The position numbers and the translations under genes were made by a program. A stretch of DNA of 64,000 nucleotides from an uncultured Planctomycetia bacterium (GTDB lineage: Bacteria > Omnitrophota > Gorgyraeia > Tantalellales > Tantalellaceae): the NCBI GenBank assembly GCA_964572255.1, contig CAZNEE010000002.1, positions 121,129 through 185,128 of the forward strand, given 5' to 3'. Below are positions 5,316-59,853 of the stretch, piece after piece; the stretch's first letter is position 1; each line of letters starts with the position of its first letter. The notes beneath the pieces were generated by a model. It made no database searches. It was not told where the DNA came from and saw only the letters and a list, made by a program, of their open reading frames with translations.

Positions 5316-8300
5316 TTAAGCCGCTGCTCTGACTCCTAATTCCCTGTAAAATTCTTTCTTGAGGAGTTCTCTATCAATGGGCTCTGCTTTTGGCATGAAA
5401 GTAAATACCCTCGGGCTATCTTCATCAAACTCCAGCCCTATCTCGGGATAACTCTTCTTCAGTTCACTGATCAAGACTTCGAACGGTAAAACTTTATTAA
5501 AGGCAAGCTCTAAAGCCATGTTAATCATATCAACGATCCTTATGTAATTTTCTTCATTCCCATTCTCCGGCCGCTTATTGATCTGTTCAGGATCGATCCT
5601 CACCAAAAGCGCCCTGTCTCCCGTTTTAGGATCATGTAAAGGCTTGAACGCTTCTTCTTTTACTATATCCTCATGCCCTAAAACGATGATGTTCGAAAAG
5701 TTGACTTTTTTATTATCTGCTTCTTTCAGCAGCTGTCCGGCGAAATCATCCCCCTCTTTCCTGACAATATGGATATTTTTGATCCCGAGGCTTCCGGCGA
5801 TCCTGTATATCTCGCTTAAAAGCGGTTGTATTATATCGGCCTGTTCTTTTGGTATCCAGCTGGTCTCCAGCCCGATCATAATATTTTGTTCGTCATTTTT
5901 GACCCCCCCGCCAAGATCCCCATTTTTAACTTTATCGGCATAAAACCTGAGCATATCCATGAAAAGCATTGCCATCTCCTGAGCCCTGGTAAATTTGCCT
6001 TCTGTCCGCTTCCCTGCGGAAGGTTTATGTCTGATAAAATATAACGCGCTGTTATACACATGCTTGCTGTCCTTATAACTCGTTTCGACATCCATGATAT
6101 CGCCAGTGATCCCGCTCAATATTCTATATTTTCCGGCCGATCTGAGTATCTCGGCCACGGCGTCAATATCGCCCAGCTTTTCATCACGGGTTATGCACGG
6201 ATCATTCCATATCATCGCTATTCCATCATCATGGAGCATGACCGGCAATGCGCGGGCAAAGCGACTTAATGCGTCTCCCCCGATATCGCCGTCCCAATAG
6301 CTTGCAAGTTTTTTGTGCCAGGCGGGCACACTCTCTCCCGGCGAATCGATCAAGTTAGGCATGTTCCAGATGATCCTGTCGAAAACGCCGTCAAAAACAG
6401 GTTCTCCGTTTTCTGAAATTATATTATCATGGGTCACGGTCTCGATATCAAACCCGGCTATCTTAGCGGTCAGGCGAGTGTTTGCCGCTGCAAGCGGATT
6501 TATATCAACGGCATAGATCTTTCTGCCTGTTTTAAGATACGCTATCCAGCTGTCTATGCCCGAACCGGAACCCGCGATCAAGACCCTATGCCCCTTATCC
6601 AATCCTATATCATTCCACATAGCAGGGATTATCTTGGCATCAGAAACCGTCATTTCCGCCGGCGTATATACAGTGGGAAATACCGGGATAATGATCTTCT
6701 TTTTGCCTTCTTCTTCTTTAAAAATTCTTTCAAAATCCTGGTCGGATAATGTTTCCGGGGTAAAGGTCTGTATATCTATTTTTCCTGTCAGGGTATCAAC
6801 CCCGATATAATTATAGATATCTGTTTCCTGGCGGTTGAAATTTGAAATAAGCTGGCCTTGTCTTCTTCTCTCAGCGGCAAAAGAAAGCAGCAGCTTCTTG
6901 TCCGCATTCCTTCTTGTTATGAAATCTTTCCATTTCTGCGCGGCCTCAGGATCGGTCATATCGGGAAAAACAAAATTGTAAGGCGTAAGATCCAGATAAT
7001 AGATTTCATCCTGTGCGGGAGCGCCTTTGACAACAGGAAATATCCCTATTAAAAGACCCTGTTCATTATGTAAAAACTCGAATTCCCTTGTTTTCTCTCC
7101 GGCAAGTTCTCTATAAAGCACATCTAATCCGCGCGGAGTTCCGTACATCATAGATGTTTCGGGGATCCTTATCGTGCGAATGATGGTATTACTCCACCCT
7201 TGTCTTTCGGAAATTATACCGGCCTTATTGATCTCCAATGCCTGCAGGAACTCCCACGAAGCCATGTCTTTATAAAAAGCTGCGTCAGCCTCCTGCGCCT
7301 TGACCAATTTTGTTCCCGTTGCAACTGCTTCTTGTTTCTTGCCTGGAATGAAACGAACTTCAGATCTTATCTTTCCCTCGATATTGTCCAGTTCATCCAA
7401 AACATAATCACCAAAGATTTTTACTGCCTTTCCTTTTATGGGAACATCCGATACAACAAATGTACTGTCATCAAAAACTTTTATGAACTTATGAAAACGT
7501 TCTTTATTGTCAGTATCTTCGATATATACAGGAATTTTTTCCGCAGAATAAGCCTCTCCGACAACGGCTTCGAACGGTTTAAATCCCCTGTTTTTCCTTC
7601 TGAAATCAGGCCCTATATACTCATCTCCTTTCAGTTCAAAACCCAGATCTTCCACAACACTCACCAGGAAAGGATTCTGAACAAAAATGCCAAATTCTAT
7701 GTAGTAAGAACCGTTGTAAATAGCCCCCTGTTTCAGTCCGGACAACAGAACTTCCAGGAATGCCCGGGCGTACCCTCTATTCCTGTAAAGATTATCAACA
7801 AAAATACAATCGATTTCCGTGTCATTAAATCTGATATAACCAACAGGATCCCCATCCCCGCCGTAAAAATCCAGACTGCCATGATTCTCGGAAGACATGG
7901 GGAAATATTCGAAGAACAGTTTTTCATTATTGGGTGTAATAACATGCCCTGAGTAGCCTTCTTCTTCGAAAATGCTATTGCAGACTTCAGTTATTTCAAT
8001 AACCTCAGGATATTCCTCGGCAAAAGTCGCTGCTGTCAACCTTCTCTCTTTTAATGACCTCAAATAAGGCCCGACCATGATAGAACCAGTGTGATCGCCT
8101 TTCATCCAATAAGCGCCATCAATATAAGTAACAGGGGTATTATTCTCTAAAATAGCGACCCAATTATGCGTATAAGGCTTATCAAAGCCCCAATAATATC
8201 CTCCGACAACTTCCACTCGGCTGGGCGAATCCCCTCCCAATGGTAATCCATATTTCCTGGAAATGATCTCCGCCAGAGCTAAGGCGGAAATATAGCATTC

Positions 8301-11300
8301 TTTTACCGGGTATCCTTTTTTCACTTTTTGCCGCATAAGTTCCGTAAAACGATTTTCAATAGCTTTGAGATGCAAATACAAATTATCATCCGATGGCAGC
8401 ACTGAATGCGGATCTTGAACCTTGCCGTCACCGTAACCCGGAGGTCCGGGTTCGGATTTTAATTCGTTCTCTCCATCATACACCCTTATGCCCGAAGCCC
8501 AATCACTCTTATCGTACGGCCAAACTGTTACTTTCTTTCCTCCATGCCTAACTCCGATATAATATGGTTGCCCCATTAACGTTATGCTTCCATCTTTTCC
8601 GATCTTTCTTTCTGCAGGTATTGAGGGTTTTTTACGTACCACCTTTTTTCTCGGCTTTTTGACCATCTCATGCTTTTTACGTTTCTTTGTTCCTTTATTA
8701 TGGGAATTATAGCTCTCGATCAATCTTTCTACGGAATATTCTCCTGCAACTTCTTCCTCACTTTTTTCTTCCCCCTTCATCCTGTACCCAAGATGCGCGA
8801 CTTCATGGTTAAGCCATCTGGCATAAGAAACTAGATCATTTCTTCTGATCATTCCCAGAAATTCAAGAACTTTGCGCGGGATCAGCAGATTGCAGGAACG
8901 CGCAGCGCCATTTTCATCTCTCCAGGACCCGGGGTGAGTGATAAGTCTGAACGAACCTTTTTCCGGAAAAGAGATATTGCTTGTTTCTGCAAATTTATAA
9001 AGAACATCATAGAAATATTTCTCGGGGGGGCTATGTATATGGATCTCTTCTTCTATGCCCCTGCTTCTCATCTCGCTTAAGATATCTTGCCCTAATCCTT
9101 TTTCTGTTGAGATCTTATGATCTCTTTCAAATACATCCCAATAAACCCCCCATGTTTTATTGATAACGGCGTGCTGCTGGGCATTTAACACATACTGAAC
9201 CCATCTGCCGTCTTTTTTTACTAAAGCAATCGCGGGCGGATCATCGGAAGGAATGCCTTTTTTCTTATCCGATAACCTTGGCGATTCAGGCATTTTCCGT
9301 CCCCGGGAATAATTAAAACCTCTTCCATATCTGTCTCCGCTTCTTCTTTCTCCATCAATGTAAAACGTCAATTTCGGGCTGACTTCCTTGACTTTCACTG
9401 AGACAGCTTCACCTTCACTAAATCTTTTGCCTCCGCAAAGACTAAGGGGCATGAAACCTTTAACTTCTCCCTCATAAACAAGTTCATATCCCGCCAATGA
9501 ACCATCGCTCCTGCGGCGAGACTCTCTATTTACGAACACCTTAACTTCCTCTCCCGATCTCTCAGCTGCCTCCAATTCATACAATAGATCTCTTTTTCTT
9601 TCATTCGCCATCATCTGTCTTCGGCGAATAGAGAACCTGGGTTCGGGAATTATCCCCCTCCATTTACAATCGACGAGAACAACGTTCACTTTTCTGCCAA
9701 GCATATCATCAGGATTAGTTCCATAGGGGCATTCTCTCGAGCTAATGCGTCCTTTTATCTCCTTGAATTCAACCACGTAGTAGTCAAATTTGCCTCTATA
9801 ACTGTAATGATCTTCCACGATCTTGACCCTAAAAACTTTTTCAGGATCATCTTCCCCCTGCTTTATCTCTCTGATACCTAAATGATAATTAAAGACGGAT
9901 TTTGCTTTTTCGTCCAACTTGTCCAAAATAGCCTTTGATATTTTTTTATATTCATCTTCTTCTTTGCTGACCAAATAAGAAAACTCTGCGGGTTTTTCTA
10001 TTCTGCGCCTTGCATCAACAAACCTGTTCAAGTCCGCTTCTGCAATACAGTTTTCCGCTTTTCTTTTTGCTTTTGGCAAACCATGTTTTTTTAAATATAA
10101 AAAAGCCTCCAGGCTTGACAGCCTGCCTAAGCCGTCTATTTTCCCTTCAGCAGCCAACTTCATTCTTTCTTCGATCCTTTCATCTAAAAGGACTATTATC
10201 CTAATCTTTTCCCGGAAAAAAGCTTCCCTCTCTCCGAGCTTTAGGGCTTTCCATGCCCTATCGGAAAGTTTGAACTTATCACGTCTCCTGCTGTCGCTTT
10301 TCAGTAATTTACGTTCTTCCAAAAGGTCAATGACGTCTATAAGTTTGATCCGCTCATCATGAATCTTTTTCCTTACATGATCTCTCATTTCCCCTAAGAC
10401 ACGATCGGCTTCTTTCTTTGCATCTATTTCCGGCAATAATTCCGGGCGTTCATCCAAAACTTTATCGAGAAACACCGTAAAATGATCCGCCAGATCATCA
10501 TCACCCATGCTCCTAAGCTCTCCCAGGCGCCTGCGCATTTCATCAACCGCATAAGATGCTCTTTCAGGTTTCTCTTCACGTATAATCTCAAGGATATCAT
10601 TGAGCTCATCTCTCGTTCTTTCTCCCGAAGAATGAGTATCTTCACTTCCTTTATCCTTATCCGCGGGCTGGTCTGTGTGGGGCGTACCCGGGCCGAAACC
10701 GTCGGTCTTATCTTTATTGTACAAAACCTTAATGCTGAAATTTGGACTGCCCCCCTTTAAGGGGCCTGTCCTTCCGCTCAACATTATTTCTTTCACATCG
10801 GCGTTAAACTTTTCAGGAGCATCTCTCGGTATCCGCGGCTTGCCTCTTATTTCTATTAATACGTCTTCAACCGACTGAGCCACAACGCCGATTACCTTAT
10901 TCCCGATCTTAACGACCAGTTTTTCGTCTATTGTAATAACGGTGCCTTCCCTTAACTCTTTGACAAGCTCCAGTTCCTCTGTCCATTCATTACGTTCTAT
11001 CTTATATTTATTCTTTGTTCCTTCAACATGCTTTAAACGGAGATAAGCCAGCGGAAATACTGTTTCTATGTCTCTGATCTCGATCTCGCCCATCACATCA
11101 TAACTCCAGAAGCCTTCACCTGTCTTAGCGTCATTAATATCCTCGAAGCTTTGCCACTCCCGGCTTTTTTCGTAATTAAGAAGATCTCCGGAATAGAAAG
11201 TGACCTTTATTTCGTCAGCGAAATATTTTTTGAACACGTGTAGGTTATATAGCCAGGGTGTATCTATATAAATTTCATTGATCCCGTTTGTGACAGCAAA

Positions 11301-26702: not shown

Positions 26703-27417
26703 ACAGTATCCTTGAACAGGTTTCGCAAAAAGTGATTTTTTTCTTCATTTTAGCTTCATTGATCACCTGCGGACGCAGTGTCATATTACATTCACCGCAC
26801 AAGGATCCATTAATCTTGGCAATAGCGATCTTCCCGCGATTTTCACGTATGCGTTCATATGTCGCCAAAATCTCTTTATCTACTCCCTGCAAGAACCCTT
26901 CCCGTTTGCCCGTGAGTTCACTAAGCCTTGCATCGACTTCTTTTTCTTCAGCTTTTATTATTTCTTTTTCTTTATCGGTTTTTGCCTTTTCTTCATCAAA
27001 GATCTTCTTCTCTTCTTCTATTTTCGCCTGTGCCTCATCGATCCTGTCAAGAATAGCTATCACCCCATCCTCTATCACGGAAATATCCGCTTTGATATTA
27101 TTGATCTCATCAAGAAGCGCCTTGTATTCCTTGTTTGTTTTTATCTGATTAAGATCGGCCTCATGCTTGGCGATCTGCTCTTCTTTTCCCTTTATCTGAT
27201 TCTCTTTATCGTTCTTCTCTACCTGTATTTTCTTAAGTTCTTCTTCGGCAGCCTTGATGCCCGATGTTTTGGTCTCCAAAGAACTGTCGATCTCGCTTAT
27301 TCTCGCAGGAAAATACTCTTTTTTCTCCTCAAGATCATAGATCTCAGCGTCAACTTCCTGAAGCCGTATCAATTTCTCGATCTGTTCTTTTACATTTGCA
27401 TTACTTTCATCCGCCAT
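26689..27417 (-). CDS. zinc-ribbon/coiled-coil protein (COG1579 family)
   Basis: Long coiled-coil N-terminal region and a C-terminal CGECNMTL...CETCSRILY zinc ribbon. Confidence 0.65.
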   Translation of the reverse strand: MADESNANVKEQIEKLIRLQEVDAEIYDLEEKKEYFPARISEIDSSLETKTSGIKAAEEELKKIQVEKNDKENQIKGKEEQIAKHEADLNQIKTNKEYKALLDEINNIKADISVIEDGVIAILDRIDEAQAKIEEEKKIFDEEKAKTDKEKEIIKAEEKEVDARLSELTGKREGFLQGVDKEILATYERIRENRGKIAIAKINGSLCGECNMTLRPQVINEAKMKKKITFCETCSRILYAEE

Positions 27418-27698: not shown

Positions 27699-27787
27699 TT
27701 ATATTTGCAAGTAATAAAAAATAAGAAAAAATTTGACTTCTTTAGAAAATATGGTCCATTTTAAGAGAATATAAAGTTGTTCTTTCT

Positions 27788-27946
27788 AGCAGATTTTAAT
27801 CGTAAACTGTTCGCAAGAGCAGGACACAAAGCCAAAGGGGCTAAACAATGCTTTCAGCCAGCCGGCTGCCGATTGACACATCGTTAAAGTGTTGGCATAA
27901 GTATTGATCAGACCCAACCTTTCGATGGTTGGGTTTTTTGTTTTTT
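27788..27946 (+). promoter_or_regulatory. c-di-GMP-I (GEMM) riboswitch-like leader with intrinsic terminator, upstream of the first PEP-CTERM gene
   Basis: AAACUGUUC-GCAA-GAGCAGGACACAAAGCC...GGGGCUAAACAAUGC closely matches the Vibrio Vc2 aptamer (AAACCAUUC-GAAA-GAGUGGGACGCAAAGCC...GGCCUAAACCAUUGC). Followed by hairpin CCCAACC-UUUCGAU-GGUUGGG plus a U-tract. Confidence 0.7.
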
Positions 27947-28056
27947 ATAAGTAAAAAGTTTTTAAAAGGAGGTGATGAAAAATATTTCTTGCAAGTTTTT
28001 TTGCAGTTATATATAGGTAAGTTTTAAAAATCTAAGAAGAAAGTGAGGTGATAACG

Positions 28057-28659
28057 ATGAAGAAAATGTTGATCTTGATCTGTTTTGTATTAGCTATAGC
28101 GTTTATGGTAATACCATCGAAAGTTGAAGCTAGAACCATCGAAGATGATGAAGATATAGGCCCACCTCCTGGAACAGTACTCGAATATTGTGAGTGGTGG
28201 CCAAGTGAAACGGGTGACCCGGATTTTATAGATCTGAATTCTGGTGACAATTATTATGACCCTGAAACTGAAACTATCGTTTCAATGACAATCTCTGTTT
28301 GGGGAAGATCTAGCGATCAGCATGATGGTCAAGACAGCACAATTGAAGTATATATAGGCAGTACTGCTACTCCGGGGAGTCATTTGCAGCACGAGACCAT
28401 AACTCATGGCGATGAACTGGAGACAAAAACTATCACATTAAATGCTGCTGCTCTGGCCGATATCTCTGGAGACGGTAAAATAAACCTTAGATGGCACGGT
28501 CTTTCCGGAGGCGCAGGTGATCCTGACGGAGACACATTTGCTTTGGCTGGCTACCCTTCCTACGAAGCACATACCCCCGAACCGGCAACAATTATATCAC
28601 TACTTCTGGGCGGATTGGGAATGGCAGTAAAGAGGAAAAAGTTGTTCTTTAAGCAATAA
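28057..28659 (+). CDS. secreted PEP-CTERM sorting-signal protein
   Basis: GAGGTG sits 6 nt upstream of ATG at 28057. Signal peptide MKKMLILICFVLAIAFMVIPSKVEA, acidic mature region, and C-terminal TPEPATIISLLLGGLGMAVKRKK (PEP motif, hydrophobic helix, basic tail). Confidence 0.75.
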   Translation: MKKMLILICFVLAIAFMVIPSKVEARTIEDDEDIGPPPGTVLEYCEWWPSETGDPDFIDLNSGDNYYDPETETIVSMTISVWGRSSDQHDGQDSTIEVYIGSTATPGSHLQHETITHGDELETKTITLNAAALADISGDGKINLRWHGLSGGAGDPDGDTFALAGYPSYEAHTPEPATIISLLLGGLGMAVKRKKLFFKQ

Positions 28660-28760: not shown

Positions 28761-28874
28761 TTACTTTTTCTTTCTCTTTTTCTTTGCAGCTTTTTTCTTT
28801 TTCTTTACAACTTTTTTCTTTTTCTTTGCTACTTTTTTCTTTGCAGCTTTTTTCTTTTTCTTCTTTACTACCAT
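28761..28874 (-). CDS. 37-aa polylysine micro-protein (MVVKKKKKKAAKKKVAKKKKKVVKKKKKAAKKKRKKK)
   Basis: Minus-strand ORF with strong RBS GAGGAGGGG 5 nt upstream of ATG. Built from a ~21-nt tandem nucleotide repeat and followed by the terminator at 28708-28741. Too short for the ORF track. Confidence 0.45.
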   Translation of the reverse strand: MVVKKKKKKAAKKKVAKKKKKVVKKKKKAAKKKRKKK

Positions 28875-29272
28875 TATCCCCTCCTCTTTTTGTTTAAAAA
28901 CTTTTTTTTATTTTTCTCTTCGAAAATCTTTTCTTGTAAAAAATATACATTATTATTTTTATTTTGCAAGTCTATGAAAAACTTTTTTTGCTCTGTATTA
29001 AAAAAATTTTTCGCTTTGAGAATATTTTTTCGGGAAAATATCATTCACTTTCGGCGTGAAAGATGAAAAATAATACACACGCTATACCTCTTTAAAATAA
29101 GGGGCTGTAGCGCTATGGATTTTTCTTCTTTTTTATTTTACTTTTCAACCTTGGAGATGTTGGGTGAGTTTGATCAAAAATATTTTATAAAAAATTTTCA
29201 AAATGAAAAAAAATTCAATATTTTTGCTTTTTAAAAAAAATAAATAAAAATATTTTTAGGATTTATTTGCGC

Positions 29273-33631: not shown

Positions 33632-34081
33632 TTATCCCTCCTTGCTTTGATCTAAAACAAATGTTACCGGACCATCATTGATGAGCTTTACATCCATATG
33701 AAGGCCAAAAGCACCTTCCTCCACCGCGATATCTTCCTGCCGTAAAAATTCATTGAATTTCTTCCACAAGTTTTCTGCAACTCCCGGTTCTGCCGCATCG
33801 TCGAAGCCGGGTCTATTCCCTTTCTTAGTGTCCGCAAAAAGGGTAAATTGCGGAACACTCAAAACTTTCCCTTTTACTTGTTTTAAATCAAGGTTCATTC
33901 TACCATTTTCGTCTTCAAAAATCCTCATTTTACTTATCTTCAGCGCCATATTCAACACGGATCCGGGATCATCATCTTTACCGATACCGGCAAGAAGAAG
34001 TGCTCCTTTGCCGATTGACGCTATCTCTTTTCCCTCGACCGAAACCGAGGCTCCTTTGACGCGCTGCATTACAATCTTCAT
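33632..34081 (-). CDS. dtd: D-aminoacyl-tRNA deacylase
   Basis: Start at MKIVMQRV (Dtd typically begins MRAVIQRV); PQFTLFAD corresponds to the SQFTL motif; GPVTFVLD C-terminus. Confidence 0.85.
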   Translation of the reverse strand: MKIVMQRVKGASVSVEGKEIASIGKGALLLAGIGKDDDPGSVLNMALKISKMRIFEDENGRMNLDLKQVKGKVLSVPQFTLFADTKKGNRPGFDDAAEPGVAENLWKKFNEFLRQEDIAVEEGAFGLHMDVKLINDGPVTFVLDQSKEG

Positions 34082-34101
34082 AATTATAATAAAATTATAT
34101 A

Positions 34102-34247
34102 ATGCTTGAACTGTTTCTCGCAGGGACGTCAAATTTTCCCAGCGAGAAAATTTGACTCAAAAATCTCCTCGCTCTCGCTGCAACTTAGGCGCCAGCGAAC
34201 CATGCCCGCTCGTCGATTTGATGCCCTGCTCTAAACAGTTCAAGCAT
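34102..34247. repeat. ~146-nt palindromic repeat element with 14-nt perfect terminal inverted repeats (ATGCTTGAACTGTT / AACAGTTCAAGCAT), copy 1
   Basis: Nearly identical (inverted) to 59238-59399. Fills the dtd / FAH intergenic region and overlaps the FAH stop codon. Confidence 0.65.
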
Positions 34248-34983
34248 TACCTGCTTTTACTATATTCCTGAGCTTGCCGATTCCCTCGATCTCAACGACG
34301 ATCTCGTCTCCGGGCTGCATTGGTCCGATCCCGGACGGCGTACCGGTCGCTATTACATCTCCGGGCAGCAATGTCATGATGCCCGATATGAAACTTACTA
34401 GCTTCTCAACACCAAAAATAAAATTCGACGTGCGTGAATCCTGCTTTTTCTCGCCGTTGAGATACGCTCTTATATAAAGATCATCAGGGTCAACATCCGT
34501 TTCCACCCACGGGCCTATCGGCGCGAAAGTGTCAAAAGATTTCGCCCTGGTCCATTGACCGTCCCTTTTCTGCAGGTCTCTTGCAGTGACATCATTAAAA
34601 CATGTATAACCCAGGATGTGAGATCCTGCTTCATCGGGGGTTATTCCCCTGATCCTATCCTTTATAACTATCCCCAATTCCGCCTCGTAATCTACCCTTG
34701 CAGATGAAATGGGGTACATTATCTCTTCATCCGGCCCTATAACCGATGTCGAAGGTTTAATGAAGATGATGGGCTCATCAGGTATATCCATGCCCAATTC
34801 ATCGGCATGATCTCTATAATTCAGACCGACTGACACGACCTTCGAAGGTACGGCGGGCGTTAATAATTTAACTTCTCTAATATCGAAATTTTTTTGATCA
34901 TCCGGTAACCCGGTCCTTATTTCACTCCCCCCTAAAACCCCGTTATAAATATTTTCTTTATGTTCAAACCGTACTAACTTCAT
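34240..34983 (-). CDS. fumarylacetoacetate hydrolase (FAH) family protein
   Basis: LNYRDHADELGMDIPDEPIIFIKP and DYEAELGIVI motifs. Confidence 0.8.
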   Translation of the reverse strand: MKLVRFEHKENIYNGVLGGSEIRTGLPDDQKNFDIREVKLLTPAVPSKVVSVGLNYRDHADELGMDIPDEPIIFIKPSTSVIGPDEEIMYPISSARVDYEAELGIVIKDRIRGITPDEAGSHILGYTCFNDVTARDLQKRDGQWTRAKSFDTFAPIGPWVETDVDPDDLYIRAYLNGEKKQDSRTSNFIFGVEKLVSFISGIMTLLPGDVIATGTPSGIGPMQPGDEIVVEIEGIGKLRNIVKAGNA

Positions 34984-37310: not shown

Positions 37311-39068
37311 TTACGCCACCCTCTCCTTGTGTATTTTATTTATCTTCGAAAGCAGGTCTTTTATTTTTATACCATTATTGGATCTCTGTGCTTCTTTTAA
37401 CCTGAAAGTAAGATCTTTGAGCTTGGCGTCCCTATTCTCTTTTTTTAAACTCAATATGCAGTCTGCCAGCATTTTTTCTTTATTGCTGTTCTCTATATCG
37501 ACTTTTTCAACGGCAGCTACTACTGTTCGCTTCGCGTTCTCATCATTTTCCAATCTGCTCAACAACTTGCCGGGGCTGATCTCATCCAGCTTTTTGAACA
37601 TCTCTCCTGCCGCCATCATGGCTTTTTTTACATTTTCATCGTGGAACAGGTCAAGCCCCACCTCGCTCTTTATTTTGTTGTACATTTTCTTATCAAGTAT
37701 TGCCAGCCCCAGAAGATACGACTCGCTGGAGTTTAAATTATTATTTTTAGGCATGCCGGCTTTAGATGTATCTTCATGATGATAGGAGTAACCCGGCTTC
37801 ACTTTTTTAACCTCAATACGCAGGGATTGTTCGTGCACTCCCAGACGTTCCGCCATCTTCTTTAGATATGAAGACTGGACCACAAGATTGCTGATGCGGG
37901 ATATTGTGGGAAGCATCTCATCGGCTATACGCCCGATATCTCCCATGCCGTATTTTTCAACTAAAAGATCCAGTTTGTAATCAAAAAGGTCCTTAGCCTG
38001 CTCTAGTGCGCCCTCAAAAGCTTCTTTTCCTTTTTTCCTGACAAAGCTATCGGGGTCATCACCTTTCGGCAGGGCAGCTATCCTTACCCTCATTCCTTTT
38101 TCTATGAGAACGTCCAGCCCTCTCAGACTCGCGGCTTCACCCGCCTGATCAGCATCAAAGACCATTACCGCGGTATCGGTATACTTTTTCAGCATAGCGA
38201 CCTGGGCTGGAGTAAGCGCGGTTCCTGAAGCCGCCACAACGTTCGTGACACCATGCTGGGAAGGGATGATCACATCCAGATATCCTTCCGCGATGATCAC
38301 ATATCCCTTTTCTCTGGCAAACTTCCGGCTAAAATTCAAGCCGTAAAGAATATTGCTTTTGTTATAAATTACGGTTTCGGGAGAATTGATATATTTTGGA
38401 AGAGAGTCATCCATTACCCTCGCGCCGAACCCCACGATATGATCCCTTTCATTGAATATCGGGAACGTTATGCGGTTTCTGAACCTGTCGTAATCTCCCT
38501 TCCCTTTCTCGCTGGGTATCGCCAGCCCCGCTTTCCGCAATAAGTCAGCCGGGATCTTTTTTGAAGTGCAATATTCCCGCAGTGATTCCCACTCATCCAA
38601 AGCATAACCTATCCTGAATTTTGAAATGCTGGATGAATCTAATCCCCGTTTTTTTAAATACTCCAAAGCCCTTCTTCCCTTTTCGCTATGCAGATTGTTC
38701 TGGAAGAAAGAAGCGGCTATTTTGTTCACTTCATAAAGCTGTCCGGCCAATGATACGGTCTCTTTTGACCTTTTTTCATAAACAGGCAGTTCCACCCCCG
38801 CTTTAGCTGCAAGCATTTTCACCGATTCAGGGAAATCCATGTTTTCATATTTCATTACGAACCCGATAGCGTTACCGCCTGCGCCGCATCCGAAACAATG
38901 GAAGATCTGTTTATCGGGACTGACCACGAAAGAAGGGGTTTTCTCGTTATGGAACGGACAGCATGCCTTAAAATTCCTGCCGGTCTTTTTAAGAGGCACA
39001 AAGCCCGAGATAACCTCCACTATATCGACCCTATCAAGTATCCTGTCTATTATTTCCTGCGGTATCAT
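37311..39068 (-). CDS. dnaG: DNA primase
   Basis: Zinc ribbon [11 protein letters not shown]...CFGCGAGGN and a Toprim domain. Confidence 0.9.
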
Positions 39069-52268: not shown

Positions 52269-52862
52269 TTAACTTGTAAACTTTTTTACTGCCGTTCCTA
52301 ATAAAGCAAGGCCTAACATCACCATGCTTGCGGGTTCCGGAGATCCATAAATACCTCGTGCGGCACCTCCCTCGTCACTAATTGCTGCCGCTCCGACCCC
52401 GAAATAATAGGGCGAACTGCCCGCTTCCGGTACGACAAATGTATCGAACCCTTCTTGTTTTCCGACCAAGCTCACAACATCAGAATCAACCAATGTTAAT
52501 GTGCTATCCATCAATACAAAAACAACTGCATCGCCGAACTGTTCGTTATTCGAGTACCATTTGTAATTGATTACATCCCCTACTGAAAAAGAGGTAGGTG
52601 CAACATTGAACACCCCTTCATTAACAGTGGTAATTTTAAATATCGCCATATGTTCCGTATGATCAGCTTCATCTGAATCTTCAGGTGACTTTTCAACAGA
52701 TACACTTGGTCCGTTAGGTGCCCAATTTGTCATGTCGCGCATTTCTAAAAGAATATTACTCAATCCGAGCTCCCACATATTATATGTCGCAGCTTCAGCA
52801 CAAATTGTTAACGCAAATAATAGTGCAATAAACAATATAAAAGCTAAACAACATTTCTTCAT
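52269..52862 (-). CDS. secreted PEP-CTERM sorting-signal protein, paralog 2
   Basis: Same RBS/start context as the 28057 gene (GAGGTG 6 nt upstream of ATG). Signal peptide MKKCCLAFILFIALLFALTICAEA. C-terminal SPEPASMVMLGLALLGTAVKK. Confidence 0.75.
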   Translation of the reverse strand: MKKCCLAFILFIALLFALTICAEAATYNMWELGLSNILLEMRDMTNWAPNGPSVSVEKSPEDSDEADHTEHMAIFKITTVNEGVFNVAPTSFSVGDVINYKWYSNNEQFGDAVVFVLMDSTLTLVDSDVVSLVGKQEGFDTFVVPEAGSSPYYFGVGAAAISDEGGAARGIYGSPEPASMVMLGLALLGTAVKKFTS

Positions 52863-52892
52863 CATTCTCACCTCACTTTCTTTTTAGATTTT

Positions 52893-53046
52893 AAAAAACA
52901 AAAACCCAACCATCGAAAGGTTGGGTTACTGATTTTCTCCAACACTTTAACGATGTGTTAATCGGCAGCCGGCTGGCTAATTTCTTTCCTAGCCCCTTTG
53001 GCTTTGTTGCCCCGTTCTTCCGAACGGTTTACGATTAAAATCTGTC
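52893..53046 (-). promoter_or_regulatory. c-di-GMP-I (GEMM) riboswitch-like leader with intrinsic terminator, copy 2
   Basis: Minus strand: AAACCGUUC-GGAA-GAACGGGGCAACAAAGCC...GGGGCUA..., then ACCCAACCUUUCGAUGGUUGGGUUUUUGUUUUUU. The P2 stem shows compensatory changes relative to copy 1. Confidence 0.7.
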
Positions 53047-53136
53047 AAAAAAAACACTAACTTTATAATCGTTTAAAGTATAGCATATCCTTCTAAGAAT
53101 GCAAGTTCTTATAAAAAAATAAGTTAACAGAATTTG

Positions 53137-56773: not shown

Positions 56774-57127
56774 ATGGAAAAGAAAAGGCTTTTGATCTGT
56801 GACGATGAGATCGGGATAAGAGAATCCCTTAAACTTATACTCGAAAGTGATTACGATCTGGACTTCGCGTCAAACGGGGATGAAGTTATGGAAAAAATAA
56901 AGAACAGCCGGTTCGACGGCATTCTTCTTGACGTAAAAATGCCGGAAAAAGACGGGCTGGAAACACTTCAGGAAATAAAACAGTTTTCACCGGAGATGAA
57001 GATCATTGTTGTCACCGGATACAAAACGGTTGAAGCGGCCTCGAAAGCGATAAAACTCGGCGCGATGGATTATATTACTAAACCATTTGCCGAAAAAGAG
57101 GTAAGAGAAAAAGTCTCAAAGATATAG
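56774..57127 (+). CDS. stand-alone response regulator receiver (CheY-like)
   Basis: LLICDDE...ILLDVKMPEKDGLE...IIVVTGY...K REC motifs. Confidence 0.8.
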   Translation: MEKKRLLICDDEIGIRESLKLILESDYDLDFASNGDEVMEKIKNSRFDGILLDVKMPEKDGLETLQEIKQFSPEMKIIVVTGYKTVEAASKAIKLGAMDYITKPFAEKEVREKVSKI

Positions 57128-58533: not shown

Positions 58534-58910
58534 GTGTTACTATTGATCCTGATATTATCCGCCGCGCTCAGAACTGTTCTTTCAAGATGGTCGAGTAAAA
58601 GCGGTTTTGTAATGTATTCTATAGCGCCTAATTTTTTGGTTTCTTCTATCTTGCCGGCATCTCTAACGCCGCTTACAATTATGACACTGCAATTATTCCC
58701 AGTTTTCCTTATCTCTTTCAATGTCTCGATGCCGTTCATGATCGGCATATTTATATCCAAAATAACTATTTCGGGATTCTCGGCCTCGACCAGCCGTATC
58801 GCCTCTTTCCCGTTATGGGCCATGAAGGTCTGAAAATCCCTTTCCCTGAAGAAAGTTTTCAGGAAATCACATATATCAACTTCGTCATCGACGATCAATA
58901 TCTTTATCAT
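58530..58910 (-). CDS. response regulator receiver domain protein
   Basis: MIKILIVDDEV...ILDINMPIMNG...VSGVRD. Start set at the ATG that overlaps the upstream stop (ATGA). Confidence 0.75.
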   Translation of the reverse strand: MIKILIVDDEVDICDFLKTFFRERDFQTFMAHNGKEAIRLVEAENPEIVILDINMPIMNGIETLKEIRKTGNNCSVIIVSGVRDAGKIEETKKLGAIEYITKPLLLDHLERTVLSAADNIRINSNT

Positions 58911-59068
58911 CTGTTCTCCTGATCCTCGATCCATTTGTCAATCGTTTCTCTCTTGAAACGCCATTTTGACCCTACTTTGAAGGCGGGAATTTTCCCCTCT
59001 TGAGCGTGCTTATAGATCGTAGCGTTTTTCATCTTAAGATATTCAGCTACTTCTTCTACCGTCATCAT
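58907..59068 (-). CDS. excisionase-family (AlpA/Xis-like, MerR superfamily) HTH DNA-binding protein, 53 aa
   Basis: MMTVEEVAEYLKMKNATIYKHAQEGKIPAFKVGSKWRFKRETIDKWIEDQENR fits the 'helix-turn-helix, excisionase family' pattern. Its stop overlaps the receiver gene start. Too short for the ORF track. Confidence 0.5.
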   Translation of the reverse strand: MMTVEEVAEYLKMKNATIYKHAQEGKIPAFKVGSKWRFKRETIDKWIEDQENR

Positions 59069-59237
59069 TGTGCTAACAACCATAACTCCCCCTGAACTTA
59101 GTAAATATTACTATGCTTTAATACAAATTGGATTTTATTGCGCCAAATTGCGCTCTTTTGGCGTTATTTGTTACTTATTAGATAGTATAATGAGAGAAAT
59201 AGTCCAAGTCAAGTTTTGGCATTATTTATCAGATCTC

Positions 59238-59399
59238 TATATATGCGGTTTGAACTGTTTGGAGCAGGGCATCAAATCTGCGAGCGGGCAAGGTTCGCCA
59301 GCTGTTAAATCGCAGCGAGAGCGAGAAGATTTCTGAGTCAAAATTTCTCGCTGGGAAATTTTGACGTCCCTGCGAAAGACAGTTTAAACCGCATATATA
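59238..59399. repeat. ~160-nt palindromic repeat element, copy 2 (inverted relative to copy 1)
   Basis: Terminal repeats TATATATGCGGTTTGAACTGTT / AACAGTTTAAACCGCATATATA. The interior is ~85-90% identical to the reverse complement of 34102-34247. Ends 2 nt from the pgpA stop codon. Confidence 0.65.
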
Positions 59400-59400
59400 A

Positions 59401-59853
59401 TTAGTGAAAAAGGAATGCTAAGACTTGAAGGATGATATTTGTGTAAATGGCGCCTACGAGGTCATCCAGCATTATGCCCCATCCGCCCCGGACACCCTCA
59501 AGTTTAGCCATCGGAGGGATCTTTATGATATCTATGATCCTGTAAATTATAAAACCCGCAACGATATATAAAAGTTTATAAGGCACGAATAAAAAAGCGA
59601 TCAATATGCAGGCAAATTCGTCAATGACGACTTTTGACGGATCTTTCTCCCCTGTCTCGTCTTCAATAACTCCGCTCGATATAACGCCAAGGATGAAAAG
59701 AATAACAAAAGAGACGAACTGTACCAGCGGATTATTGTGAAGAATCAAATACAGCCCCAGCCCCGCTAAACTGCCTACAGTCCCCGATGCTATCGGCGAA
59801 TAACCAAGTCCGCATACTGTCGCTATAACTTCGTGCACTTTGTTTGACCTCAT
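59401..59853 (-). CDS. pgpA: phosphatidylglycerophosphatase A
   Basis: VIATVCGLGYSPIASGTVGSLAG signature; 150 aa membrane protein. Confidence 0.75.
   Translation of the reverse strand: MRSNKVHEVIATVCGLGYSPIASGTVGSLAGLGLYLILHNNPLVQFVSFVILFILGVISSGVIEDETGEKDPSKVVIDEFACILIAFLFVPYKLLYIVAGFIIYRIIDIIKIPPMAKLEGVRGGWGIMLDDLVGAIYTNIILQVLAFLFH

Follow-up and report, generated by a model that had tools for sequence, protein, structure and literature searches.

Two inverted copies of a palindromic repeat in an Omnitrophota genome, probably a MITE-type mobile element

Introduction

Correia elements, the MITEs of Neisseria, are intergenic sequences that measure about 100-200 bp, end in inverted repeats of at least about 20 bp, duplicate a TA target and are co-transcribed into long hairpins. 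ERIC sequences (also IRU) have a length of about 127 bp and are imperfect palindromes that lie in either orientation in transcribed intergenic regions, and REP and REPIN sequences are extragenic palindromic repeats that form hairpins from short G+C-rich units. As a class, prokaryotic MITEs are small and non-coding, carry terminal inverted repeats, occupy AT-rich intergenic targets, give rise to transcripts with stable stem-loops and differ in presence or absence between genomes (PMC10969869). Correia transcripts are cut by RNase III at their terminal repeats, processing by RNase III or RNase E is described for Correia and ERIC transcripts, ERIC insertions at the 3' ends of Yersinia genes alter mRNA levels, and QMITE2 of Coxiella burnetii resides chiefly in ORF 3' UTRs (PMC10969869).

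Among known elements, the palindromic element described here is most like Correia, ERIC and QMITE2. It resembles Correia in size, terminal inverted repeats, intergenic position and hairpin architecture, but differs from it in copy number (more than 100 copies per genome for Correia vs. two known here) and in host phylum; no sequence similarity between the two was detected, and no sigma-70 promoter-like site lies inside the element. With ERIC it shares the imperfect palindrome of similar size, the occurrence in either orientation and the location in transcribed intergenic regions, whereas there is no sequence relationship and the host phylum is again different. QMITE2 is likewise shorter than 200 bp, with inverted ends and stable transcript hairpins (predicted ones, in the case of the present element); however, QMITE2 has 78 copies and many truncated forms, and no truncated copies were seen in the DNA analysed here. 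The likeness to REP and REPIN lies in the extragenic, hairpin-forming palindromes; the short G+C-rich units of those families contrast with the long terminal inverted repeats and AT-rich flanks of this element, and no RAYT gene accompanies it in the DNA analysed.

Interspersed repeats have hardly been described in the Omnitrophota literature, as judged by a full-text search combining the phylum name with "transposable" and "repeat", which found only three papers. This study characterized a short non-coding sequence bounded by inverted repeats, which is present at two unrelated sites and in opposite orientations within a 64,000-nt stretch of Omnitrophota DNA (the whole stretch analysed, hereafter the window). 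The element is probably of the MITE type, with a transposase encoded elsewhere and a hairpin that is a by-product, and most likely represents a MITE-type element new to this under-studied phylum.

Results and Discussion

Host and genomic setting

The window sequence recurs in several assemblies that are independent of one another (JGI, ENA, Logan and NCBI), and the longest contig has 498,635 bp (ENA ERZ27256770 k141_130128, also in NCBI). The best named homologues of two window proteins belong to Candidatus Omnitrophota, and the nearest non-identical relatives show only 67-72% protein identity; the host is therefore an Omnitrophota species to which these collections contain no closely related sequenced organism. 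Housekeeping genes are densely arrayed in the window, and of its 54 ORFs of 90 aa or longer, 51 lie on the minus strand; among the few on the plus strand are one riboswitch-controlled gene and a response regulator (56774-57127). The features of the two copies and their neighbouring genes are listed in Table 1.

Table 1. Coordinates, in the window, of the two copies of the palindromic element, their parts and the adjacent genes
Feature	Coordinates	Strand	Description
Copy 1	34100..34249		150 bp, orientation opposite to copy 2; perfect 17-bp terminal repeats TAATGCTTGAACTGTTT / AAACAGTTCAAGCATTA
FAA-hydrolase-family gene	34240..34983	-	Upstream of copy 1
dtd, D-aminoacyl-tRNA deacylase (PF02580)	33632..34081	-	ATG 18 nt beyond copy 1
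Copy 2, palindromic element	59238..59399		162 bp, between pgpA stop codon and promoter of next operon
Shared core	59250..59387	+	138 bp; + strand here = minus strand of copy 1
Left terminal inverted repeat, copy 2	59238..59259		TATATATGCGGTTTGAACTGTT
Right terminal inverted repeat, copy 2	59378..59399		GACAGTTTAAACCGCATATATA; 20/22 complementary to left repeat
Left subterminal repeat	59264..59277		GCAGGGCATCAAAT; pairs with 59360-59373; same in both copies
Right subterminal repeat	59360..59373		TTTGACGTCCCTGC; same in both copies
pgpA, phosphatidylglycerophosphatase A (PF04608)	59401..59853	-	Stop codon 59401-59403, 1 base from copy 2
Promoter-like site TTGACT-17-TATACT	59184..59212	-	For HTH_17 / response regulator / HD-GYP operon
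HTH_17 gene	58907..59083	-	First gene downstream of copy 2

Structure of the element

Copy 2 is an imperfect palindrome that a preliminary description of this DNA had taken for a second, inverted copy of copy 1, with an interior about 85-90% identical, while asking for a pairwise alignment of the two. That alignment has now been run and confirms the claim: the 138-nt core of copy 2 and the reverse complement of 34106-34243 align ungapped and are 87% identical, with 18 mismatches (12 transitions and 6 transversions), most of which fall within core positions 30 to 62, the central part that holds further small hairpins. Local BLAST of the copy 2 core against copy 1 gave E = 3e-43, and a separate repeat search of the window paired the two copies over 148 nt at 85%. 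The 17-mer GAGCAGGGCATCAAATC is common to both copies and occurs at no other site in the window, with a chance expectation of 0.2 at up to 3 mismatches. The motifs quoted in the preliminary description were found in the sequence, as were the extended terminal repeats that it gave for copy 2, in which, however, one base had been misread (AACAG written for GACAG).

The terminal repeats are complementary at 17 of 17 positions in copy 1 and at 20 of 22 in copy 2. Both copies have terminal TTGAACTGTTT repeats in common, and the end pattern of the element reads TGC(GGT)TTGAACTGTTT plus subterminal GCAGGG..TCAAA; the helix formed by the subterminal repeats (helix 2) is invariant between the copies. 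Outside TTGAAC, the palindromic extensions are copy-specific, being TATATATGCGGT/ACCGCATATATA in copy 2 and TAATGC/GCATTA in copy 1, and the outer 12 nt of the left repeat of copy 2 (TATATATGCGGT) are absent from copy 1. The end sequences thus differ between the copies while being complementary within each, the differences comprising three double changes and a symmetric indel of 3 nt (GGT/ACC); the indel and the base changes are found in both arms of one copy and in neither arm of the other.

Either strand of both copies folds as a single long hairpin. Predicted RNA hairpins over the two copies range from -62 to -75 kcal/mol (z = -6.9 to -10.0), with copy 2 reaching -70.5 and -75.5 kcal/mol on its two strands (z = -10.0 and -8.9, respectively); folded as DNA, copy 2 gives -42.1 kcal/mol (z = -8.1). 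The longest open frame in the element has 62 codons, and a six-frame peptide query of the element, concatenated and intended to catch ORFs miscalled across other copies, returned zero matches among 5.8 billion proteins.

Insertion sites and empty sites in relatives

The terminal repeat of copy 1 encodes the last two codons and the TGA stop (34240-34248) of the FAA-hydrolase-family gene. The C-terminus of this protein is of normal length in comparison with 15 homologues, and copy 1 was therefore inserted at or just after the original stop codon. The gene order NIL - FAA-hydrolase - dtd is conserved in three related Omnitrophota lineages, in which either the FAA-hydrolase gene overlaps dtd by 4 bp (L236 and L239-241) or 11 bp lie between the two (L237/238); the corresponding distance in the window is 157 bp, of which the element makes up 150. 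In the relative L236, dtd starts within the 3' end of the gene that precedes it. In the window, dtd is now preceded only by the AT-rich TATAATTTTATTATAATT (34082-34099, minus strand), with no visible Shine-Dalgarno motif, in contrast to the HTH_17 gene, which has AGGGGGAG.

At the site of copy 2, the order pgsA - pgpA - HTH_17 is kept in L242, L243 and L244/245, none of which has the element between pgpA and HTH_17 according to BLAST and an inverted-repeat search. The spacer measures 175 bp in the closest relative vs. 317 bp here, a difference close to the 162-bp element. The sequence CTTGAC-17-TATACT is found upstream of HTH_17 in all four lineages (the window and the three relatives), and the promoter-like site of the window, 25 nt from copy 2, is hence conserved in relatives that lack the element.

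The flanks of both copies are AT-rich (TTATATA / TATATAATTTTATT and TAATTATATA / TATATAGAG). Copy 2 has TATATA on both sides, and at the corresponding position L242 and L244, which include the closest relative, have a single TATATA, located in a short palindrome; copy 1 is bordered by TA at both ends. In an empty site 2, the flanking sequences CACTAATTATATA and GAGATCTG would be contiguous, and an empty site 1 would join the 3' end of the FAA-hydrolase gene to TATAATTTTATTATAATTATG. The doubling of TATATA and TA is a hint of target duplication that may equally be read as an extension of the palindrome, the two readings being inseparable because TA and TATATA are themselves palindromic. On this comparison of sequences, both copies are insertions at sites that appear occupied in this lineage only.

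Within the population, no empty site was found at pgpA, where all of the spanning assemblies have an identical copy 2. Copy 1 is likewise unchanged in both of the contigs that span it (L235 and L277), of which L277 belongs to a strain diverged by 0.44% over 6.1 kb. The first 104 nt of L277 (positions 1-104) are an inverted copy of the directly following sequence (window 38621-38724), which looks like a fold-back assembly artefact at a contig end.

Probable assignment to the MITE type

The element was compared with the features by which MITEs are recognized, namely a non-coding length below 500 bp, terminal inverted repeats of about 4-30 bp, flanking direct repeats, multiple dispersed copies and a related autonomous IS (PMC10969869). 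The two copies are 150 and 162 bp long with no open frame beyond the 62 codons given above, both are bounded by terminal inverted repeats, their sites are occupied in one species and empty in others, and their AT-rich targets and stable stem-loops, with z-scores throughout the range given above, agree with the class. Combined, these observations make a MITE-type mobile element the probable identity. A transposase encoded elsewhere in the genome would have recognized the terminal and subterminal inverted repeats and would have inserted the element at (TA)n sites, presumably with duplication of 2-6 bp of target, and the long hairpin would then be a by-product of the inverted-repeat architecture. 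Several observations speak against this assignment: only two copies were seen in the sequence surveyed and none in that of relatives, no transposase is encoded in the window, no empty site was found within the population, and the outermost end bases differ between the copies and are nevertheless complementary within each, which simple decay of one family would not predict.

Co-transcription with the upstream gene would produce a very stable 3'-UTR or intercistronic stem with a near-perfect duplex of 18-23 bp, which, by analogy with Correia and ERIC, could obstruct 3' exonucleases or undergo cleavage by RNase III. The hairpin may thus act passively at the mRNA 3' end, stabilizing or processing the upstream mRNA. 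There is no sign that the element has been selected for a host function.

Alternative explanations

The preliminary description had stressed that copy 2 abuts the pgpA stop codon, that each copy lies immediately 3' of a minus-strand gene, and that this placement suggests either an insertion-site preference or a terminator or stability module. The first point was borne out, with 1 base in between, and the second is true of both copies but carries little information: given that 51 of the 54 ORFs are on the minus strand, any intergenic element here lies 3' of one minus-strand gene and 5' of the next. As to the third, the insertion reading is upheld by sites that are empty in three lineages each and AT-rich, with TA or TATATA at the junctions, whereas a designed role as terminator or stability module is not supported; the absence of a T run, the opposite orientations, the split of a coupled gene pair and the lack of a replaced terminator in the relatives all speak against it.

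It is accordingly unlikely that the element is primarily a cis-acting RNA module of the host, be it a terminator/attenuator or an mRNA 3'-end stabiliser, selected at gene ends. Such a module would agree with the very stable RNA hairpins, with the start of both copies at, or no more than 1 base from, a stop codon, and with the fact that all substitutions in the consensus helices keep pairing (4 changes from G-C or A-U to G-U and 3 double changes). However, when the structure is taken from one copy only, mismatches are not clearly depleted at paired positions (Fisher p = 0.03-0.3), and the covariation is non-significant with two sequences, being matched by 68 of 500 shuffles. No Rfam match was obtained even at E <= 10 (no gathering-score match near either copy; for copy 2 at E <= 10, a best score of 14 bits against a cutoff of 158). 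A G+C-rich stem-loop followed by a U tract, as in an intrinsic terminator, was found in neither copy on either strand, the stems being followed by GAGAUCUG, AUUAGUG, UAUAAUU or CCUGCUU, and a promoter-like site is also absent from the inside of both copies on both strands. Additionally, the copies are oriented oppositely with respect to transcription, so that the sequence of the element differs between the two mRNAs; copy 1 separates two genes that overlap in relatives, and a terminator there would make the pair polar; and the relatives are without any such module at either site, with no terminator at the pgpA site for the element to replace. An independent sRNA gene was rejected as well, since the flanks of the two copies share, by eye, no promoter-like sequence.

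A second alternative is a hairpin repeat doublet of the REP/REPIN type, spread as single-stranded DNA by a RAYT (a domesticated IS200/IS605-like tyrosine transposase) rather than by a DDE transposase. The whole element forms one long hairpin as DNA as well as RNA, its two arms evolve symmetrically and it lies outside genes, all of which would suit such a doublet, but it also has true terminal inverted repeats and (TA)n flanks, and a short G+C-rich REP unit with a conserved 5' tetranucleotide is not evident. With no PF01797-type (RAYT) gene among the annotated window proteins, and with two copies in 81 kb being sparse, this origin is improbable.

The symmetric, copy-specific ends could be explained by an unconventional mode of mobility, either targeting of palindrome centres or a hairpin intermediate that copies one arm from the other. 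This mode is considered quite unlikely; if it were true, the element would be a type of palindromic mobile DNA not described before, present in Omnitrophota, in place of a conventional cut-and-paste MITE, and it might also have been co-opted as an orientation-independent structure at mRNA 3' ends. In a related proposal, the mobile unit is only the 138-bp core (TTGAAC...GTTCAA), which inserts into the centres of short pre-existing palindromes, so that the extensions are split target sites. The similarity between the copies does end exactly at TTGAAC / GTTYAA, beyond which each copy has its own perfect palindrome, and the relatives have a palindrome at the place equivalent to copy 2 (GAGTATATACTC in L244 and GTATATAC in L242). 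However, the palindrome of the relatives differs from the sequence flanking copy 2, the copy 1 site consists in relatives of overlapping genes with no palindrome, and the two cases fit a subfamily divergence of the terminal repeats equally well; a mobile core of this kind is therefore very doubtful.

That the pair is non-mobile, as a relic of local duplication or gene conversion or as the boundary repeats of a 25-kb invertible or composite segment, is highly improbable: although there are exactly two copies, inverted and 25 kb apart, and a second, unrelated inverted pair (two c-di-GMP riboswitch loci) has nearly the same offset, the gene order on either side of each copy is as in relatives and indicates no inversion or island boundary, the segment between the copies consists of housekeeping genes in conserved synteny (e.g., rpoD, dnaG, uvrA), and both copies are cleanly inserted units of about 150 bp, each bounded by inverted ends of its own.

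Two further candidates were rejected. The ends GTTTGAAC / GTTTAAAC and CTTGAAC / GTTCAAG do not, by eye, fit the R''/R' core sites (RYYYAAC ... GTTRRRY) of an integron attC site, and the copies have opposite orientations and are surrounded by syntenic housekeeping genes, as opposed to the ends of cassette ORFs in one orientation. The template/variable repeat pair of a DGR does not apply to copies that are non-coding and whose mismatches are not adenine-specific.

Copy number and proposed mobilizing enzyme

For the MITE-type element preferred here, the part of this genome surveyed amounts to about 81 kb, made up of the window and of flanking sequence on its left (8.5 kb) and right (8.6 kb), and the two copies lie 25 kb from each other in it. 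In the window, neither a third copy nor a partial copy or solo end was detected by sensitive BLAST and nhmmer; the flanking sequence contained no further copy, and the element was absent from about 100 kb of sequence of the relatives. A scan for the 17-mer GAGCAGGGCATCAAATC gave 108 matches in genome contigs and at least 116 in metagenome contigs, none of them with a second motif of the element, and all of the matches listed in these contig collections are chance matches. Viral contigs scanned with four different motifs yielded chance seeds only, and plasmid and phage sequences gave no match in a distant BLAST search. No transposase is encoded in the window, and the terminal repeat, which a parent IS would share, was found nowhere else in the window or the loci retrieved.

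In one sample, two Logan contigs that overlap by 28 nt both break inside copy 2, and one ENA contig also ends there. Such breaks are frequent at repeats and lend weak support to the repetitiveness of the sequence.

The element leaves the current understanding of mobile elements unchanged. As a defined MITE family, it would be of use in typing strains and in recognizing assembly breaks in these MAGs, and it would point to an active transposase. Additionally, copy 1 would offer a natural test of the effect of a -70 kcal/mol hairpin on an operon, since it splits a formerly translationally coupled gene pair.

Other features of the window and its relatives

The two c-di-GMP-I riboswitches mentioned above are located at 27791-27873 on the plus strand and 52961-53043 on the minus strand (loci 27778-28659 and 52269-53056, respectively). 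Each precedes a protein of about 200 aa with, by eye, a signal peptide and a PEP-CTERM-like tail. The inverted duplication at these loci covers the riboswitch (78%), the T-run hairpin that follows it (87%) and the RBS/start region (91%), and the protein bodies are quite different by eye. Start to start, the riboswitch pair (27778/52939) and the element pair (34096/59250) are offset by 25,161 and 25,154 bp, respectively; no other homology was found between the two 6-kb stretches that hold these pairs, and the near-equal offsets may be a coincidence. The first riboswitch-controlled gene is closely followed downstream by a tandem repeat rich in T (28771-28922), with periods of 21 nt and 15 nt (TTTTTCTTTTTCTTTGCAACT, 3.4 copies); weaker relatives of this repeat lie at 26958 and 37253.

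The minus strand also has a single very long ORF (5316-16619, 3767 aa), which the source assemblies annotate as a pentapeptide-repeat protein of 3756 aa (PF00805); a recent preprint discusses giant genes of this kind for Omnitrophota.

Upstream of the HTH_17 operon, parts of a leader of about 130 nt are conserved along with CTTGAC-17-TATACT across the four Omnitrophota lineages (window 59084-59237, minus strand; L242 1109-1283; L244 5520-5800; L243 5890-6156), one conserved stretch being AATAAC.CC...CAAT..GTATTAAAG. PgpA is only 58-67% identical among these lineages, and the leader could, from its sequence conservation, be a regulatory one. In L243, the spacer between pgpA and HTH_17 is 700 bp long and holds a different repeat at 5618-5764, a 34-nt unit (GTCATCCCGGAATTTGACAAAGGACCCAAGCCAT) in 4.3 tandem copies; repeats seem to be tolerated in this spacer, or attracted to it, in more than one lineage.
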